Part shown: piece after piece, positions 14,827-21,434 of the stretch
Layout: the number at the start of each line of letters is the position of its first letter
Numbering within the stretch: the stretch's first letter is position 1
Source of the DNA: Candidatus Heimdallarchaeota archaeon
Lineage (GTDB): Archaea > Asgardarchaeota > Heimdallarchaeia > Heimdallarchaeales > Heimdallarchaeaceae
Reading direction: 5' to 3'
DNA length: 21,711 nt
Assembly (NCBI GenBank): GCA_030668825.1
Contig: DAOVET010000040.1
Coordinates: 1 to 21,711 of the forward strand
The notes under the pieces: generated by a model
Database searches by the model: none
What the model was told of the DNA's origin: nothing
What the model saw: only the letters and a program-made list of their open reading frames with translations
Position numbers and translations under genes: made by a program

Positions 14827-15081
14827 ATGGTTAATGTGGCTGTAGCTCTTGAAAACCCAAATTTAAGTCAAAATCTTCTAACAGGTTTACCTCCTAGTGC
14901 TGTTACAATTTATAAGATAGTGATTGGCAAAGGGCCTATTACTAGTTGTGAAATAGTCGATTTATGCAGTTTAGCTCCAAGAACTGTTCGTCATGGACTA
15001 AAACTGTTAGTCAGAGCTGGTTTAATTCAAAAACTCCCTCACTTACTTGATATGAGATCATGTAAATTTTATGTTGATTAA
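14827..15081 (+). CDS. Small archaeal MarR-like winged-helix transcription regulator
   Basis: LPPSA..IY......GPIT..EI.....LAPRTVRHGLKLL...GLI...DMR...Y is a typical stand-alone archaeal wHTH pattern, with the MarR-type DxR wing. Confidence 0.85.
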   Translation: MVNVAVALENPNLSQNLLTGLPPSAVTIYKIVIGKGPITSCEIVDLCSLAPRTVRHGLKLLVRAGLIQKLPHLLDMRSCKFYVD

Positions 15082-15143: not shown

Positions 15144-17441
15144 TTATACCTCTACATCACTCGAATGGAATAAGACATCCCTATTAATTGCTGATTTAAA
15201 GAGACCTAGAAGTAACTCATTTGAAGTTCTCACAGCTATGGGTATTGAATCTGCAGTTAGGAAAGCGAATACAGCTTCGTTATTGCCATCCAAAATCCCG
15301 CAGTAGACATCTTTCTTATCATAGTGTTTCAGTTTCAATCCTGTAAACCTTTCTGAAAGTGGTCTAAGGATAGACTGATGTCTTTTGTCAAAATATGAAA
15401 CTAATGTTACTCGCTGAGCTTTTGTGTATTGCATCATTTCTTTAAGAAGATCTTCATCAACATCTGGTGTAACAAGAAGGAGTTCATAATTAGACCTCAT
15501 TGCAATGTCTGTAATACTGGCTTTGATAGCTTCTTCTCCTACAATAATAGATGTATCATGTTGTCCATCAAATGAATATGATGATGCAGCACCATCAACT
15601 TGCCTTAATTCATCTTCTCTTGTATTAACAACTTGATAGAAAGTCATTGCTTTTTCCAAAAGAGAATCCATTTGAGAATCTAATATTTCATCAACATCTT
15701 TTATTACAGCCGCAACTTGAGATACTAGAGTGTTGATTTGGATTTCTTCGCCTTCTGAAATCTGTTCTATAATCTGTTCCTTTTGTTCATCTTTATAATC
15801 CTTAAGATGCTGTTTTAGTCCAGTTAGCTGCATAGCTAATTGATTTCGTTTTTCTTCTGATTTCTGCTGAAAATGATTTAAAGAATTTTGTAGTTTTTCT
15901 TTTAATTCAAGTGCCATCTTCTCTGAATCTTGTTTTGATTTGCTTAACTCTTTAATAGTATCATTTTGAATTTTATTAATAATCTGAGTTTTTTCGTTAT
16001 CATGAGACTGAAAATCTTTTAGAACTTGTTCTTTAGTAGTATTTAGCTGATCTAGAGTGTTTTGCTTTAATTCTTCTGTTACCTCTGAACAGGAATCATA
16101 TGAAGAGGTGGCATACACTTCTGTTTGATTTTGGAGCGTTTCCAAGAGATTCTTTGGTAGCAAATCTATCTTCTCTATAATTGTATCAGTTAGTTCATTC
16201 TTCTTTGTTCGAATGGTTGTTTCTCCTGTTATCTGAAAATGGTCCAATTTAGAACGCAACGCTTCCCTAACTTCATTTAAGGACAAAACATGTTGATCTA
16301 TCAATTGCAATCCACTCTCATTCAAATCATTAGCTAAGTTTCGAACAGTATCTCTTGCATCTTGGAGAGGTGCCTCAATTTGTTTTTTTCCTTTACCCAA
16401 TTTCATCATAGTAGAGCCTTCTAGACCATTTAAAGCTTCAGCGATTTTTGAAGACAAAAAGTTTGTCTGTCTGTCGATTTGTTCAACACTTCTTCTAAGC
16501 TCTTGAGTCTGTTTAATTTGGTCAGAGAAAATGTTGTTTACTTCAGAAGAGAGTTCTTCGACTACTTTTTTCGACTCTAAGTTCCATGCACTATAAGATT
16601 CTTGCCAAATTCTATTATAATTCTCGAGGAAGGATTCTTGAATTTCAGTCACATCATTAACAAGATCTTTGAGTGCATTATCCATATCTGGAGCTAGTTT
16701 TTCTAGAAATTCTTTATGATTCTCTGTATGAGAACCTAAACCATTGTTAATAATCTGTGTTAGATTTTCAAAAGAACTTTGTATTTTTTCTTCAGTTGTT
16801 TGGACTAAAGCATCACTATTATGTTTTGCTGTATGGTGGAACTGTTTTACAAAAGCATTGAGTTCTTGCACAAAAGTTTCCAACTGTGTAGAAAACAGGA
16901 AGGGCTGATCCATCACTTGAGTCAGATACCCAGTTACTTCTTGTTCTGTTTCAGTTATGAAAGCAGAAGCTGATTTTTCAGTTTGTTCGCTATGCTCAAC
17001 ATATTGTTGAAATAGCGCTTCGACTACTTGTTTAATTAAACCACTAACTACATGAATGTCAAAAACAGAACCTTCACCAGTTAATTCTAGAGTTCCCCCA
17101 AATTTAGTTTTCTTTTCTCTATACTCTTCCTTTGCACCTTTTAATGCAGTTATTACACCATCTAAGGAGTATAATGCGTCTTTTTCTATAATTATGTATT
17201 CTTTAAGAAAGGGGAGCATAGCAAAGTACTGAGGGGTTTTTCCTGCTGTTTTCTTCAAGAAACCCAATTCTTCCAAATTCTTAACTGATTGAATGAGGGT
17301 AAGGGGATCCAAACCTGTTACTACTAGTAATTCACCTATAGTTACTTTTCCTAACCCAAGTGTAGCAGAATACACTTTTATATCAATTTCATTAAAACCT
17401 ATACGAGTTAATAGTGGGGGTAGTATATTGATTCTTGACAT
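15144..17441 (-). CDS. TrmB-like protein: N-terminal wHTH, ~540-aa helical insert, C-terminal PLD-like/TrmB effector domain
   Basis: LTRIGFNEIDIKVY...GKVTIGEL...LEELGFL...PQYFAMLP resembles the TrmB HTH. Residues ~78-622 are E/Q/K/L-rich helix. The C-terminus IIVGEEAI...I..RSNYELLLVTP...CGILDGNNEAVF resembles the TrmB/PLD-like domain. Confidence 0.75.
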   Translation of the reverse strand: MSRINILPPLLTRIGFNEIDIKVYSATLGLGKVTIGELLVVTGLDPLTLIQSVKNLEELGFLKKTAGKTPQYFAMLPFLKEYIIIEKDALYSLDGVITALKGAKEEYREKKTKFGGTLELTGEGSVFDIHVVSGLIKQVVEALFQQYVEHSEQTEKSASAFITETEQEVTGYLTQVMDQPFLFSTQLETFVQELNAFVKQFHHTAKHNSDALVQTTEEKIQSSFENLTQIINNGLGSHTENHKEFLEKLAPDMDNALKDLVNDVTEIQESFLENYNRIWQESYSAWNLESKKVVEELSSEVNNIFSDQIKQTQELRRSVEQIDRQTNFLSSKIAEALNGLEGSTMMKLGKGKKQIEAPLQDARDTVRNLANDLNESGLQLIDQHVLSLNEVREALRSKLDHFQITGETTIRTKKNELTDTIIEKIDLLPKNLLETLQNQTEVYATSSYDSCSEVTEELKQNTLDQLNTTKEQVLKDFQSHDNEKTQIINKIQNDTIKELSKSKQDSEKMALELKEKLQNSLNHFQQKSEEKRNQLAMQLTGLKQHLKDYKDEQKEQIIEQISEGEEIQINTLVSQVAAVIKDVDEILDSQMDSLLEKAMTFYQVVNTREDELRQVDGAASSYSFDGQHDTSIIVGEEAIKASITDIAMRSNYELLLVTPDVDEDLLKEMMQYTKAQRVTLVSYFDKRHQSILRPLSERFTGLKLKHYDKKDVYCGILDGNNEAVFAFLTADSIPIAVRTSNELLLGLFKSAINRDVLFHSSDVEV

Positions 17442-17564: not shown

Positions 17565-18215
17565 TCAATTGGTTTCCACACCATTTTTAGGACAATAAGA
17601 TTGCAAAAAGCATTCGATACATTTGGGCTTTTGTGCTTTGCAGATAGCTCTGCCATGTGAGATAAGTAGATGAGTAATTTTCCCCCATTTCTCCTGTGGA
17701 ATTATTTCCATCAATTCCTTTTCTATTTTGATAGGATCAATATTATTTGTCAAACCCAATCTGAAGGATATACGTTTTACGTGGGTATCAACGGCAATCC
17801 CCTCATGAATTTCAAACCAATCATTTAGAAGAACATTAGCAGTTTTCTGTCCTACACCAGTTAATTTGGTCAATTCTTGCAAGGATGTTGGGATTTTAGA
17901 ATCATATTTTTTGATCAATTCTTTTGACATCTCATGAATGAATTTTGCTTTGTTTTTATATAATCCAACTTCCGAAATGGCTTGCTCAATTTCTATAATA
18001 GAGGCACTTGCAAAAGCTTGGGGGTCTGGAAAAGTGGAAAATAATTCTTTAGTAACAGAATTAACTTGTTTGTCTGTACTCTGTGCACTTAGAATAGCGG
18101 CAACTAACAGCTGATAAGGAGAAGTATAATTAGTTAATCCACCCTTAAACGTAGGATAGTATTCCTCTAGTTTTTCTAAAAGTAATATAGTTCTTTTCTT
18201 TAATGAAGTGCTCAT
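17565..18215 (-). CDS. nth: Endonuclease III (HhH-GPD DNA glycosylase with 4Fe-4S cluster)
   Basis: LSAQSTD, HhH LTGVGQKTA (catalytic K), AVDTHV (catalytic D), CKAQKPKCIECFLQSYC. Start moved to ATG 18215. Confidence 0.95.
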   Translation of the reverse strand: MSTSLKKRTILLLEKLEEYYPTFKGGLTNYTSPYQLLVAAILSAQSTDKQVNSVTKELFSTFPDPQAFASASIIEIEQAISEVGLYKNKAKFIHEMSKELIKKYDSKIPTSLQELTKLTGVGQKTANVLLNDWFEIHEGIAVDTHVKRISFRLGLTNNIDPIKIEKELMEIIPQEKWGKITHLLISHGRAICKAQKPKCIECFLQSYCPKNGVETN

Positions 18216-18488
18216 CAAAGAAGAAGAAGAGATAGGTAATTTATATGTTTTTAAAAGACAGAAACTAAAAATCACTAGTATAACTCTTAAAATAATTAAC
18301 ACTTTAAAAAGGAAAATAAAAATAGCATCAATCATCTCATAAGGTTCTCATTAGTAGATTCATGGATTGATGTATTTTCACTCCCCAAATATTAAAGATA
18401 GAACTATTTTTTCTTTTTCTTATCTAAGCCACAAATTGCTGTAAATAGTGTTAGATATATCCAAGAAACATATACACAAAGAAATATC

Positions 18489-18502: not shown

Positions 18503-18544
18503 GTATCCAAGACTATAAATTATTTGTATAAAGGGGAATATAGA

Positions 18545-19114
18545 ATGGGCGCAGGACAACGGAAAATCTTCAAAATCACACTACTTGGAGACGGAGCAGT
18601 TGGCAAGACAAGTCTTCGAAAAACCTATCTAGGTGAGGGTTTTAAAGATGGCTACTCCATGACAATTGGGGCTGACTTCGCTGTTAAACGATTAAGAATA
18701 GATGACCAAGATTTTGTTGCTCAGATTTGGGATCTCGCAGGACAACAGAGATTCTCAGCTGTTCGTGAAGTTTACTATCGCGGAACATCTGGATGTTTAT
18801 TAGTTTTTGATATTTCTCGACGTTCAAGTTTTGAAAATATTCCATCTTGGATAGCAGAACTTCTAAAGAACAATAGTAATAGAGTTGTACCAATAGTTCT
18901 CATAGGCAATAAAAGCGATCTTCGAGCTACAGCTAAGGATCCAATTATGCGAGAACAATCTGAAGAGTATGCTCGCAGTCTTTCAGCTTGGTCAGGCTTT
19001 ACTGTTCCTTATATCGAAACCTCTGCCAAAACTGGCGAAAATGTTGATGAAGCATTTAAGACCTTGTTAAAGAATATTGTTTTGTTTTACGAAAAATTAT
19101 ATGCTCAACAATAA
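18545..19114 (+). CDS. Rab-like small GTPase (Ras superfamily)
   Basis: G1 GDGAVGKTS, G2 T in YSMTIGADF, G3 WDLAGQ, G4 GNKSD, G5 ETSAK, and RabF-like motifs IGADF, VAQIW, RFSAVR, YYRGT, LVFDIS. ATG 18545 follows GGGGA. Confidence 0.95.
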   Translation: MGAGQRKIFKITLLGDGAVGKTSLRKTYLGEGFKDGYSMTIGADFAVKRLRIDDQDFVAQIWDLAGQQRFSAVREVYYRGTSGCLLVFDISRRSSFENIPSWIAELLKNNSNRVVPIVLIGNKSDLRATAKDPIMREQSEEYARSLSAWSGFTVPYIETSAKTGENVDEAFKTLLKNIVLFYEKLYAQQ

Positions 19115-19142
19115 GTAATTGCTTTTCCTTTTCTTTTGTTTG
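19115..19142 (+). terminator. T-rich tract between the convergent Rab-like and coiled-coil/wH genes
   Basis: GTAATTGCTTTTCCTTTTCTTTTGTTTG; oligo-T runs are typical of archaeal intrinsic terminators. Confidence 0.45.
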
Positions 19143-19949
19143 TTACTGATTATTATTGATTCGTATATTCATTGTATCCTCATCAAATTCAGCATGAAGA
19201 GAAACTGTTCCATCTTCATTTATATTTAAAATCTTCATCTGTTCTAGCTCTGAAATATACTTCTTTGTTTGTGAAAGAGAAACCCCAAGTACAAAAGACA
19301 GCTGAATTGGAGCTATTACGCCCATTCTTCTAAGAAGGTTTATGATGTTAAATCTTGGATCAGTGGTTACTATTCTTTCTAGAATATTTTTTTGTTTCAT
19401 CCATTTATCCGTATCTTCTTTGATTTTCTCCATCTCATCTTCTAATTTCTTTTTTTCTACCTCAATCGCAACAACTTGGTCTGATAACTCATAAATTAAC
19501 GAATCTCTTTCTTCTAGAAGTAGATTGAGCATATCTTTTTCTCTTTGAAATTCCTCTAAAACCCCAGTGTCCATCTTCTCGCCACTTTCGGTAGCATCGT
19601 TAGATTTTCTTTGAATCATCCTTCTATCATGTTGATAGGGAGATACTGAGAACATGCTTGATAAGAAATTAAACAATCGGAAGAATTCTGATTTCATCTC
19701 AGCTATTACTACGTCTGAAGAGTTTTCCAGAAGCTCACTAACATATTGTATTGCGGGATCTAGTTCTAGAGTTGATGTTTGATTTTTTTTCTTGACCTTT
19801 TCCGCTTTAGCTTCTTTTTTTCCTGGTGATTTGAGATTTTCCTTTAATTCTTCAACTTCTTCAGAAAGCTTTGATATTTCTGTAGCGATTTCTTGAAATT
19901 CATCATCATCCTCAGATTTTTTCTCATCATAGTTTTCCATCGAAATCAT
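19143..19949 (-). CDS. Coiled-coil protein with C-terminal winged-helix domain
   Basis: Heptad-like coils at aa ~17-40 and ~130-193. C-terminal DPRFNIINLLRRMG...IQLSFVLGVSLSQTKKYISELEQMKILNINEDGTVSL is a wHTH pattern. The ATG abuts the upstream stop (TAG-ATG); alternative start at 19940. Confidence 0.75.
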   Translation of the reverse strand: MISMENYDEKKSEDDDEFQEIATEISKLSEEVEELKENLKSPGKKEAKAEKVKKKNQTSTLELDPAIQYVSELLENSSDVVIAEMKSEFFRLFNFLSSMFSVSPYQHDRRMIQRKSNDATESGEKMDTGVLEEFQREKDMLNLLLEERDSLIYELSDQVVAIEVEKKKLEDEMEKIKEDTDKWMKQKNILERIVTTDPRFNIINLLRRMGVIAPIQLSFVLGVSLSQTKKYISELEQMKILNINEDGTVSLHAEFDEDTMNIRINNNQ

Positions 19950-20780
19950 CTATATTTTTGCTGTTGATTCAATCTTGAAGCCTTCGGATTCAGAGGGGGT
20001 AAGATCAAAGTTTTCACTTACATAGGCTACTCCCATTAATTTTGTAATTGCAAAAGTATCTTTTATTCTGCTTCCGACAGTGCTTCTTGAAAAATAAAAT
20101 ACCCCCTGAGCAGCATTCATGATTATTCTTTCAGCTACAGAATCTAGCACATCTTGAGGTAATAGAAAGAAATGCACACCACCTATCTTAGTTAAAGACA
20201 TTATTGTTCCCTTTAAAAACGTGATTAGAGCATTTGAATCTTCATCCAATCTATCTTCTTTCATCCATAATAAATCATCAAAAACACTAAAACATTGTTT
20301 ATTCTGATTTTCTTTTACATGAAGCATTCTATCAATAATTTTCTTAACATAAGTTTTTCTTTTTACTTCAATCTTTCCTAGTTTTAGAGAAGAAGTCATT
20401 GAAGAGCTGGAAAGATTAAACATATTTTCAAAATACCAGTTCTTACCTTCGAAAGGTTTCACATCCCACTTATAAGCGTTGAATGAATTCAAAATATGAG
20501 AATACGGACGAGTACTATGAACATAGAAAATTACATTATTAGAGTTTTGAGCCCAATTCAGAAGAATTCTTTGAATAAATAATGTTGGTATCACTGTTTC
20601 TGAAGGATAACTTACCAGTATAAGAGATCCTTGAGGTAACCCTTTTCTTGAGGACATCTCCATCCCCAATTTTTGATCAAGTGATCTAATACCAGTTTGA
20701 ATTAAATCACCTCTTGCATCCTTTGAGGGGTTTGACTTTCCTATACGTTCTGTCCCTCCAGATAGTGAGTTCATATCCAT
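19950..20780 (-). CDS. Inactivated KaiC/RAD55-like RecA-fold protein (pseudo-ATPase)
   Basis: IQTGIRSLDQKLG...GLPQGSLILV is the KaiC/RadA N-terminal signature. The Walker A position reads YPSETVIPT, Walker B-like is CFSVFDD, and the C-terminus FAITKLMG...EGFKI resembles KaiC. GAGGA RBS. Confidence 0.8.
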   Translation of the reverse strand: MDMNSLSGGTERIGKSNPSKDARGDLIQTGIRSLDQKLGMEMSSRKGLPQGSLILVSYPSETVIPTLFIQRILLNWAQNSNNVIFYVHSTRPYSHILNSFNAYKWDVKPFEGKNWYFENMFNLSSSSMTSSLKLGKIEVKRKTYVKKIIDRMLHVKENQNKQCFSVFDDLLWMKEDRLDEDSNALITFLKGTIMSLTKIGGVHFFLLPQDVLDSVAERIIMNAAQGVFYFSRSTVGSRIKDTFAITKLMGVAYVSENFDLTPSESEGFKIESTAKI

Positions 20781-20802
20781 TGAACATTCCTCAAATAATT
20801 AG

Positions 20803-21315
20803 CTAAAATTGCTCTAGCTCCCGTAGTGCAAGTTCTAAATCAGATATAAATTCATCTTGAACCTTCTTCTCTTCTTCAACAGCAACTGGTTGGGCAGCTA
20901 CTACGGGTTGAACTTCCGGAGCTGGGACGGGTTTTGCTTCAACGTCCAATATATTTCTGATTTTTTCTGCTGCCATTTTCATGGTTCTTCTAACCATTCC
21001 AAGAGCTACACCGGCATCTGTAATTAAGCACACAACAGTACTTCCACAACTTGCTACTAAAATTAAACCATCTGAAAATTCAGAGATAATTATATCTAGC
21101 ACAGCTAATCCAACATTTGTACCTTGCTGTTCACTGGCTAAGTAAACTGCACTTGCTATAGCTCCAAGAGCTTCTGTTTCAAATTCATCAAAAGCGAATC
21201 TTGAAGAATAAGCCAATGTTAATCCTGTCTTATCAGCTAATATAACGTGATTAATATTAGCATCGCTTGTTATAATTTCATGAAGTATTGTATTTATTTG
21301 GTCAGCACCATACAA
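20803..21315 (-). CDS. Roadblock/LC7 (MglB/LAMTOR-like) protein with C-terminal linker and acidic amphipathic helix
   Basis: VILADKTGLTLA...EALGAIASA...LDIIISEFSDGLILV...LITDAGVALGMVR is the classic Roadblock pattern. A TTG start at 21315, 5 nt after GGTGA, is preferred over 21327. Confidence 0.9.
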   Translation of the reverse strand: MYGADQINTILHEIITSDANINHVILADKTGLTLAYSSRFAFDEFETEALGAIASAVYLASEQQGTNVGLAVLDIIISEFSDGLILVASCGSTVVCLITDAGVALGMVRRTMKMAAEKIRNILDVEAKPVPAPEVQPVVAAQPVAVEEEKKVQDEFISDLELALRELEQF

Positions 21316-21434
21316 GCAAATCACCAAGTATTTTACGACATCTCTTAATGTCTATTTGTTATTTAATATATTTATATGTAGTGTTAATATTTTTATCAAG
21401 CAAACTTTTTAAACATGACGTAAAAACTAACCAC

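Follow-up and report, generated by a model that had tools for sequence, protein, structure and literature searches.

The stretch of DNA analysed here (the window) comprises 21,711 nucleotides (nt) of contig DAOVET010000040.1 from a Candidatus Heimdallarchaeota archaeon (assembly GCA_030668825.1). On its reverse strand, between genes for endonuclease III and for a small helix-turn-helix (HTH) protein, it carries a gene for a protein of 765 amino acids (aa), members of whose family are annotated in the databases as hypothetical or as a TrmB regulator. The two parts of a TrmB-type head stand at opposite ends of this protein, separated by a long helical rod. The rod is a hendecad coiled coil, its two arms pair in antiparallel fashion about a central turn, and the protein very probably forms a folded-back stalk on its TrmB-type head.

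A TrmB-type head divided by a hendecad rod

The Pfam family TrmB (PF01978) matches the N-terminal winged helix-turn-helix (wHTH) at aa 11-74 just above its cut-off (E 4.1e-6; 27.0 bits against 25.6), and a profile of the protein family matches TrmB (3qph, E 2.7e-7) and TrmBL2 (5bpd, E 1.2e-6) at the N-terminus. The alignment with 3qph pairs positions 7-140 with residues 7-149 and thus continues through the helix after the wHTH. A full-length AlphaFold2 model, built on a 21-sequence orthologue alignment (mean predicted local distance difference test score, pLDDT, 67.2; predicted template modelling score, pTM, 0.28), contains helices at aa 73-114, 129-342, 351-421, 432-564 and 570-620, and, beyond them, an alpha/beta domain that occupies aa 630-765. 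In Foldseek this domain has TrmBL2 as its best match (5bpi_C, E 1.0e-7), followed by TrmB (3qph_A, E 1.4e-6; for 2f5t_X the root-mean-square deviation is 2.8 Å over 144 columns), Nuc, Zucchini and FAM83; on account of these neighbours we assign it to the phospholipase D (PLD)-fold domain of the TrmB family. Pfam returned no family match for the C-terminus, and NCBIfam none for the protein. These limits agree closely with those of a preliminary description of the locus, which had placed a wHTH at aa ~8-77, a helical region at aa ~78-622 and a PLD-like domain at aa ~630-765. The same description had read the HxKxxxxD position as DVYCGILD and considered it probably non-catalytic. Indeed, D-V-Y-C-G-I-L-D stands at aa 711-718, with D718 invariant across the family, while H-x-K-x4-D is absent from the whole protein, and none of 49 long homologues contains it within its last 170 aa. 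String searches revealed no CxxC and no Walker A motif (G-x4-G-K-[ST]) anywhere in the protein, and the sugar-binding subdomain (PF11495) gave no match at E values up to 1, the protein ending with the PLD-fold domain.

Some 455 residues (aa 115-569) separate the two base helices that adjoin the wHTH and the PLD-fold domain. Nearly all long homologues can be aligned with hidden Markov models (HMMs) of both the N-module (aa 1-112) and the C-module (aa 572-765), and the alignments extend into the helices at aa 78-112 and ~585-620. Since the module HMMs align there and that of the apex does not, two pairs make up the conserved unit, the wHTH with the helix that follows it and the second helix with the PLD fold; what varies is the stretch between these helices. 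A complex prediction of the N-module (aa 1-128) with the C-module (aa 565-765), run without controls, gave ipSAE values of 0.01 and 0.05, the mark being 0.32, and weighs neither for nor against contact.

The rod itself is a hendecad coiled coil. Its hydrophobic period is 3.66, with a power of 7.40 over aa 129-620; among 5000 shuffles the mean power was 0.85 and the highest 2.40. The similarity autocorrelation peaks at lags of 11, 22 and 33 (z = 5.1, 4.9 and 4.8), and between aa 117 and 622 the 11/3 phase deviates by no more than about ±75 degrees, across all breaks. The core positions modulo 11 are 0, 3, 4 and 7 (a-d-e-h) in both aa 129-342 and aa 432-564, which share one register, and the segment in between (aa 351-421) is shifted by +3 relative to the N-arm. 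Among 25 long homologues, 24 have a period of 3.59-3.69 that beats all 300 shuffles, the exception being P0043. The polar face is acidic and rich in Q, N, S and T, the net charges of the arms are -21 and -17, and K/R make up 0.05-0.19 at all wheel positions, with no enrichment at the edges of the hydrophobic stripe. The family-wide hendecad periodicity explains the best matches of the family profile in the PDB, namely apolipoproteins A-IV (E 3.9e-16) and A-I, tape-measure proteins and designed helical bundles, as a likeness of periodicity and composition. A Pfam Apolipoprotein match at aa 302-479 is sub-threshold (E 5.8e-4; 20 bits against a cut-off of 90).

Antiparallel pairing of the arms about a central turn

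In the full-length model, a break at aa 343-350 has 214 helical residues on each side; further out, past the outer breaks, come the base helices, 42 and 51 residues long. The N-side joint, in which G115 is invariant and G116 nearly so, lies 218-231 residues before the turn, and the C-side joint 218-222 residues after it. Owing to these breaks (aa 115-128 and 565-569) and to a kink in the C-arm (aa 422-431, with the invariant P429), the helical region is not a single joint-free helix pair. A separate model of aa 236-457 (pLDDT 76.7, pTM 0.42) consists of two helices with a two-residue break at aa 343-344. Its best PDB match in Foldseek is the Smc arm of B. subtilis (5nnv_B, TMq 0.49, 226 columns), followed by the Smc arm of P. 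yayanosii (5xg2) and Smc5/6 arms, all of which are single-chain antiparallel SMC (structural maintenance of chromosomes) arm constructs, and then by other helical hairpins.

Sequence conservation mirrors itself about the same centre. In 22-residue bins counted from the turn outward, it amounts to 0.83/0.81, 0.81/0.82, 0.69/0.83, 0.70/0.70, 0.80/0.73, 0.52/0.50, 0.77/0.69, 0.64/0.62, 0.54/0.56 and 0.85/0.77 in the N-arm/C-arm. In the query's own clade the best centre of mirror symmetry is 347.0, with an r of 0.81 that 1 of 500 permutations attained; the corresponding centres are 303.0 in the 675-aa subfamily (r 0.79; 2 of 500) and 343.5 in the 755-aa subfamily (r 0.57; 23 of 500). The scan was restricted to centres for which both arms have 200 residues or more, with permuted 11-residue blocks as the null, and this restriction matters, since other centres score equally high once shorter arms are allowed.

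Covariation was scored as mutual information with average-product correction (MI-APC) for pairs at least 40 residues apart, and summarized by the sum of the paired positions, i+j. In the own clade (43 distinct sequences; effective number, Neff, 17.8), the best sum over the range 450-949 is 695. Within ±8 of this value lie 21 of the top 200 pairs, where ~7.5 are expected (calculated for a sum of 694) and the null maximum in 300 runs is 19; for the top 100 pairs the count of 13 equals the null maximum. This ladder spans positions 139/564 to 232/465. The Lokiarchaeial clade (117 sequences, Neff 41, drawn from the best 120 of 360 matches) has its best sum at 687. Of its top 200 pairs, 15 fall within ±4 of this value, whereas 3.9 are expected and none of 500 null runs exceeds 13; for the top 50 and top 100 pairs the peak, at 691-695, merely equals the 95th percentile of the null. 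Its ladder holds 23 pairs, with 17 and 20 distinct positions in the two arms, 62-198 residues from the tip. The covariation centres, 347.5 in the own clade and 343.5 in the Lokiarchaeial one, coincide with the respective tip loops.

A helix-breaking loop is found near the centre throughout the family. Nine-column windows between the near-invariant anchors P77 and G635 were scored for gaps and for Gly/Pro, and a gap- or Gly/Pro-rich loop was present at relative position 0.45-0.53 in all nine subfamilies, which have anchor spans of 439-558 residues; in five of them the central loop is the top or tied-top peak. A helix-propensity scale for locating breaks in single sequences was dropped, as the breaks modelled in the query were not reproduced.

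These results bear out most of what the preliminary description had proposed. It had noted a Gly/Lys-rich stretch (aa 339-353, nt 16383-16427) at the midpoint of the helical region, where the coordinates are right and the modelled break is central, and had read from it an antiparallel hairpin with arms of ~270 aa that reunites the N- and C-terminal domains, in keeping with the symmetric breaks, the SMC-arm matches, the mirrored conservation and the covariation ladders described above. It had also looked to an AlphaFold model for the position of the turn and to homologues of different length for its centring; both agree with the hairpin, as the central break and the central loop in every subfamily indicate. 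The basic/hydrophobic tip that it had assigned to the hairpin stands in part. Five subfamilies carry a Gly or Pro beside a hydrophobic pair and basic residues at the tip (the own clade weakly, the Lokiarchaeial one strongly, and three others), and the remaining four do not. In only 8 of 43 sequences does the net charge of the tip fall in the top tenth of rod windows, and some close orthologues (L024 and L025, at 88% identity, and P0004) have lost exactly 11 loop residues, or one hendecad, so that little of the apex loop remains and its hydrophobic part is gone. The basic/hydrophobic tip is thus clade-dependent. The functional suggestion of the description, a possible chromosome-membrane tether or chromatin-architecture protein in place of a simple regulator, is a hypothesis.

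The flanks of the loop are a stronger sign of a second site. Conservation is 0.86 at aa 301-338 and 0.84 at aa 354-392, compared with 0.90 and 0.86 in the head domains and 0.63-0.72 in the mid-arms; the apex loop itself is sequence-variable (0.65). Since about 40 residues on each side of the loop are conserved like the head, we consider the apex a second functional site. An HMM of the apex (aa 300-395) gave no clear match outside the query's own family (best outside E 0.011), which indicates that its sequence motif is clade-specific. The most striking tip is Lokiarchaeial, with a net charge of +5 to +6 over 25 residues in four of six sequences. Near aa 336-350, four of these proteins (L056, L063, L064 and L068) contain a Gly, a Phe-Phe-Trp-Met/Leu run and at least four Lys, and this loop looks like a membrane-inserting motif.

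A further conserved site lies ~105 residues from the apex. His238 and His242 in the N-arm and Cys451 in the C-arm are invariant in 43 of 43 own-clade sequences. All 151 Lokiarchaeial proteins with a length of 740 aa or more have a corresponding His-x3-His and Cys, as do three further subfamilies of 753-768 aa at ~20% identity; the 646-, 675- and 730-aa classes lack them. In both clades all three residues occupy hendecad core positions and obey the mirror relation of the arms: 242+451=693 in the own clade, where the local ladder is 691-697, and 237+445=682 in the Lokiarchaeial clade, beside the ladder pair 240/440. Most simply, the three residues would bind a metal in the core and so staple the arms together, or else act as a metal or redox sensor.

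Family, feature coordinates and gene neighbourhood

A word-indexed search gave 21 matches, 20 of them full-length (762-767 aa; 48-97% identity); the named full-length orthologues are from Heimdallarchaeota and include Heimdallarchaeum aukensis and H. endolithica. An exhaustive search of cluster representatives gave 53 matches at E<=1e-3, among them proteins of 646-763 aa that match at both ends with ~20-28% identity, and short forms of ~360 aa. The gene is single-copy in the window's own assembly. At E<=1e-5, matches were present in 70 of 201 genomes of the Asgard phylum and in 20 of 21 genomes of the source's family; several other families have frames of 751-770 aa at ~20% identity, and further size classes lie near 675, 646 and 606 aa, besides some much longer frames. 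Among the genomes searched the family was found only in Asgard, and the nearest clusters of a language-model atlas are from Promethearchaeota (872, 676, 652 and 796 aa). With a Lokiarchaeial homologue as query, 117 of the best 120 of 360 matches were exactly 751 aa long, and these proteins align gap-free down to 72% identity.

Two or three length classes coexist in some genomes (in G123, 770 and 675 aa). Frames of 1300-1816 aa that begin with a related TrmB-type wHTH occur in other Asgard genomes (G006:C1, G064:C195, G070:C83, G041:C4 and G050:C16), and the match to that of G006:C1 covers query residues 7-560; even larger stalked relatives may exist. In the proteome of P. syntrophicum, the ten top-ranked proteins include DSAG12_03376, which is annotated as a TrmB family transcriptional regulator (PMC11284389). 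No link to the stalked type emerged: the name P. syntrophicum is absent among the best 120 matches listed, and the locus tag appeared in no other paper. The coordinates of the features are collected in Table 1.

Table 1. Coordinates of the stalked protein and its parts within the window
Feature	Position (nt)	Strand	Basis
Whole gene, 765 aa + stop, ATG start	15144..17441	-	Open reading frame (ORF)
TrmB-type winged helix-turn-helix, aa 11-74	17220..17411	-	Pfam PF01978; family profile against 3qph, 5bpd
Base helix N, aa 73-114, first part of TrmB dimerisation helix	17100..17225	-	AlphaFold2; N-module HMM; profile match 3qph
N-side joint, aa 115-128, Gly-rich, conserved	17058..17099	-	AlphaFold2 break; conservation 0.82; top Gly/Pro peak
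N-arm helix, aa 129-342, 214 residues, uninterrupted hendecad register	16416..17057	-	AlphaFold2; periodicity
His238-x3-His242, hendecad core positions of N-arm	16716..16730	-	Invariant in 43/43 clade sequences
Apex loop, aa 343-350	16392..16415	-	Modelled break; symmetry centre 347.0; covariation centre 347.5
C-arm, aa 351-564, 214 residues, kink at aa 422-431	15750..16391	-	AlphaFold2; hendecad register
Cys451, hendecad core position of C-arm	16089..16091	-	Invariant in 43/43; local covariation register 691-697
C-side joint, aa 565-569, opposite N-side joint	15735..15749	-	AlphaFold2 break
Base helix C, aa 570-620, leads into PLD-fold domain	15582..15734	-	AlphaFold2; C-module HMM
PLD-fold C-terminal domain without HKD, aa 630-765	15147..15554	-	Foldseek; pLDDT 73-89

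The gene order within the family is Roadblock, KaiC-like, coiled-coil wHTH, Ras GTPase, endonuclease III, the gene for the stalked protein and the small HTH gene. All six neighbours were present in 18 of 29 related loci, the remaining loci being cut by contig or locus ends; the 29 loci, found by a search from an alignment of close orthologues, are all from the query's own family. Among 20 distant loci, a Ras-like gene occurred in four and the trio in one, in all cases either within the same taxonomic order or non-adjacent. Gene-neighbour linkage was not used as functional evidence.

In the window, nt 18524-21327 hold the cluster of Ras-family small GTPase, 268-aa wHTH-like protein, KaiC-like ATPase and Roadblock/LC7 protein, which is syntenic in the family and partly so in a sister family. 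The GTPase (196 aa) is 92-100% identical across the family, and 87% in locus L041. The 268-aa protein is acidic at its N-terminus, contains a coiled coil and resembles a wHTH at its C-terminal end; it gave a weak, sub-threshold Rab11-FIP3-like Pfam match (E 0.008). Convergent with the 3' end of the gene, an 84-aa protein with a sub-threshold Pfam likeness to ArsR/HTH_20 is encoded at 14827-15081 on the forward strand; 27 of the 29 related loci have it, and in 24 of these it comes directly downstream. The ORF of endonuclease III (17565-18335, reverse strand) starts as listed with ~40 strongly hydrophobic residues, and its true start is probably an internal Met, because the tblastn segments of orthologues (~200-233 aa, mostly 200-210) begin later. 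Four runs labelled as RNA yielded short contigs over parts of the gene for the stalked protein, and three of these runs are probably DNA by their records. The sole true metatranscriptome contributed a single contig of 185 nt (16511-16694; 95-99% likeness), which is too little for a claim of transcription.

Candidate functions and comparison with known systems

The best explanation of the whole, on which our confidence is evenly divided, is that of a TrmBL2-type protein whose hairpin stalk serves as a tether or spacer. The linker (dimerisation) helix of a TrmBL2-type protein would here have expanded into a folded-back antiparallel coiled-coil stalk. The head, made up of the wHTH and the non-catalytic PLD-fold domain, would be held by the base helices (aa 73-114 and 570-620); beyond the joint, the two 214-residue hendecad helices would run out and back, turning at aa 343-350. 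At 0.15 nm per residue, the stalk would measure ~32 nm, or ~38-40 nm with the base helices. Such a head could sit on DNA as TrmB and TrmBL2 do, with the acidic and probably rigid rod projecting from it and the invariant His-x3-His and the opposite Cys stapling the arms as a buried metal site. At the far end, a set distance away, the apex would then engage a partner, be it another apex, the membrane or a protein. Two hairpins might also associate as a four-helix bundle, to which the wide a-d-e-h stripe would be suited. The near-invariant length within clades suggests the role of a ruler, and a function as a DNA-anchored architectural tether or spacer of fixed length is a tentative proposal, to which we give slightly less than even credence.

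Several observations count against this reading. The pTM of 0.28 makes the overall geometry of the full-length model unreliable, the wHTH was modelled at low confidence (pLDDT 34-46), which is why its identification rests on sequence profiles, and the Foldseek matches of the hairpin model are weak (E 0.04 at best). Furthermore, structure prediction of a monomer is biased towards folding back, and covariation and mirror symmetry are expected equally from an intramolecular hairpin and an intermolecular antiparallel dimer. The mirror correlation is partly boosted by the conserved ends and the conserved centre. Permutation figures overstate independence, as covarying pairs share hub positions and the sequences are kin, and they should be read as guides rather than probabilities. 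In one subfamily (753 aa), the most central Gly/Pro peak is at 0.452, whereas the His/Cys positions indicate 0.50, and the tip is not basic/hydrophobic in four of nine subfamilies. As to the head, DNA binding is a prediction from homology, and the DNA-recognition Tyr named in a review of TrmB (PMC4158304) is seemingly not kept, as far as can be told short of a residue-level alignment. Finally, the neighbouring genes give no functional pointer outside the family in the 20 distant loci.

The most serious structural alternative is an open, domain-swapped antiparallel dimer, that is, a rod of ~75-80 nm with a wHTH/PLD head at each end that would bridge two DNA segments, the N-arm of one chain pairing with the C-arm of the other and the Gly-rich centre serving as a hinge. 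It predicts the same i+j covariation, the same mirror-symmetric conservation and the same symmetric breaks. The second-best match of the family profile is the apolipoprotein A-IV entry 3s84, which we take to be a swapped helical dimer of the lipid-free protein, and the TrmB dimer itself has been described as a domain swap about its coiled-coil helix (PMC4158304). Against this, a turn needs a loop and a continuous antiparallel pair does not, and an indel-tolerant, helix-breaking Gly/Pro loop stands at the centre in all nine subfamilies; it is for this loop that we favour the turn. AlphaFold2, though biased as a monomer method, likewise folds the chain back, and we consider the open dimer unlikely. 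A parallel arrangement fits the data far less. Long hendecad-type periodicity near 3.64-3.67 is a hallmark of FilP/Scy-type proteins, and the rod period of 3.66 would suit a filament-forming cytoskeletal coiled coil of this kind, a parallel hendecad dimer with a DNA-binding end; however, a parallel in-register dimer predicts neither anti-diagonal covariation nor mirror symmetry, and would leave the conserved N- and C-modules apart, so that such a filament seems highly improbable.

Other alternatives concern what the folded protein does. The 11-residue repeats might open on a membrane or lipid particle, as those of apolipoproteins, perilipins and synuclein do, with the wHTH and PLD-like domains carried along, and the apolipoprotein A-IV and A-I profile matches, the weak Pfam match, the 11/3 period and the hydrophobic/basic tips of some clades (clearest in the Lokiarchaeial one) would all accord with a lipid binder. 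Yet the Pfam score is far below its cut-off, the a-d-e-h core stripe is narrow with K/R not placed at its edges, the rod is strongly acidic, the presence of only four prolines in aa 78-630 leaves no proline-punctuated 22-mers, and the inter-arm covariation ladder points to helix-helix pairing as the selected state; we therefore think this explanation very improbable. A signal-sensing regulator has more in its favour. Here a partner, a metal or the redox state would be perceived at the apex or at the His2-Cys site, and a change in the packing of the arms, as in the four-helix signalling bundle of chemoreceptors, would switch the wHTH at specific promoters: the TrmB family is mostly ligand-controlled (PMC4158304), a thiol-based member has been reported (PMC9426492), His-x3-His/Cys is an invariant feature of the core, the apex is conserved, and the soluble chemoreceptor 3g67 is among the weak matches of both profile and Foldseek searches. 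On the other hand, the TrmB sugar-binding subdomain is absent, with no PF11495 match and the last domain ending at aa 765; a stalk of twice 214 residues and near-invariant length far exceeds the needs of a sensor; and the gene is present once in the genome, with no conserved adjoining target operon outside the family. We regard a sensing role as improbable, if clearly less so than lipid binding.

If the tether or spacer indeed acts on DNA, it bears on how the chromosome is arranged relative to the membrane in the closest prokaryotic relatives of eukaryotes. A bolder version of the proposal, which we consider speculative and rather unlikely, is a length-calibrated Asgard "chromatin stalk" present across the phylum. 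Its TrmBL2-like head would coat or mark DNA, and an acidic antiparallel rod of ~38 nm, stapled by metal, would keep the conserved apex at a fixed distance, where it would insert into the membrane, as the Lokiarchaeial tip with its Gly, Phe-Phe-Trp-Met and Lys run might do, or pair with another apex. If true, this would constitute a prokaryotic chromosome-to-envelope or DNA-to-DNA spacing system, akin to a tether of the nuclear periphery, in the closest relatives of eukaryotes. The covariation ladders offer a ready register for modelling and the His-x3-His/Cys site a simple handle for mutagenesis, and cultured species allow direct tests. In the full-text literature, with few subscription journals covered, we came across no account of an Asgard protein of the TrmB type that carries a long antiparallel coiled coil.

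Four known systems invite comparison. Apolipoproteins A-I, A-IV and E (PF01442) share with the rod the 11-residue amphipathic periodicity and a composition rich in E, K, Q and L. They provide its strongest profile matches, and the tandem 11/22-residue repeats are a feature of both, but at 20 bits against 90, with no proline punctuation and with another charge pattern, the likeness is one of periodicity and composition rather than of demonstrated ancestry. The class-A pattern of apolipoproteins places K/R at the edges of the hydrophobic face and punctuates the repeats with proline. Methyl-accepting chemotaxis proteins (MCPs) resemble the stalked protein as long helical hairpins in which the tip is the most conserved part of the rod, and conserved hairpin tips are characteristic of chemoreceptors. 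They are heptad-based, whereas the rod described here is hendecad-based, gave no MCPsignal match, has no transmembrane or HAMP parts and has a DNA-binding domain as its output.

SMC and Rad50 proteins are alike in possessing a long antiparallel two-helix arm with joints, N- and C-terminal parts in one head and a specialised apex; an arm of ~270 residues is somewhat shorter than SMC arms. Their head is an ABC ATPase, while the head here comprises a wHTH and a PLD fold, with no Walker A string and no SMC/AAA family in Pfam, and their apex is a hinge domain or a CxxC hook, in place of which we find a loop of eight residues and no CxxC. The core, a regular hendecad, also differs from theirs. The protein is thus one that works like an SMC/Rad50 arm but is not a member of that group, as it has no ATPase, hinge or hook.

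The closest known system is TrmBL2 (TK0471/PF0496, 264 aa), an archaeal nucleoid-associated protein of the TrmB family, which shows the same succession of wHTH, helix and PLD-fold C-domain, likewise lacks the sugar-binding subdomain (PMC4158304), which is confined to TrmB and TrmBL1, and provides both the best structural match of the C-domain and an N-terminal profile match. TrmBL2 is a tetramer that forms stiff nucleoprotein filaments (PMC4877046, PMC4158304) and stalls SMC (PMC11840125); TrmB and TrmBL2 bind DNA as dimers or tetramers, with pairs of wHTHs in adjacent major grooves (PMC4877046). For TrmBL2, then, binding to DNA and the formation of tetramers and filaments have been demonstrated, whereas the stalked protein is known here from sequence and models. 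TrmBL2 comes from Thermococcales, the stalked family, among the genomes searched, from Asgard archaea. In TrmBL2, a single dimerisation helix joins the two domains (PMC4877046); in the stalked protein, ~455 residues are inserted at this point and folded back. The testable features of the TrmB family, namely the wHTH, the helix that follows it and the PLD-fold C-domain, are all present, the short single-helix linker being the exception. Hence, in a family known for compact regulators and for the filament-forming TrmBL2, the same head here carries an SMC-like folded-back arm.

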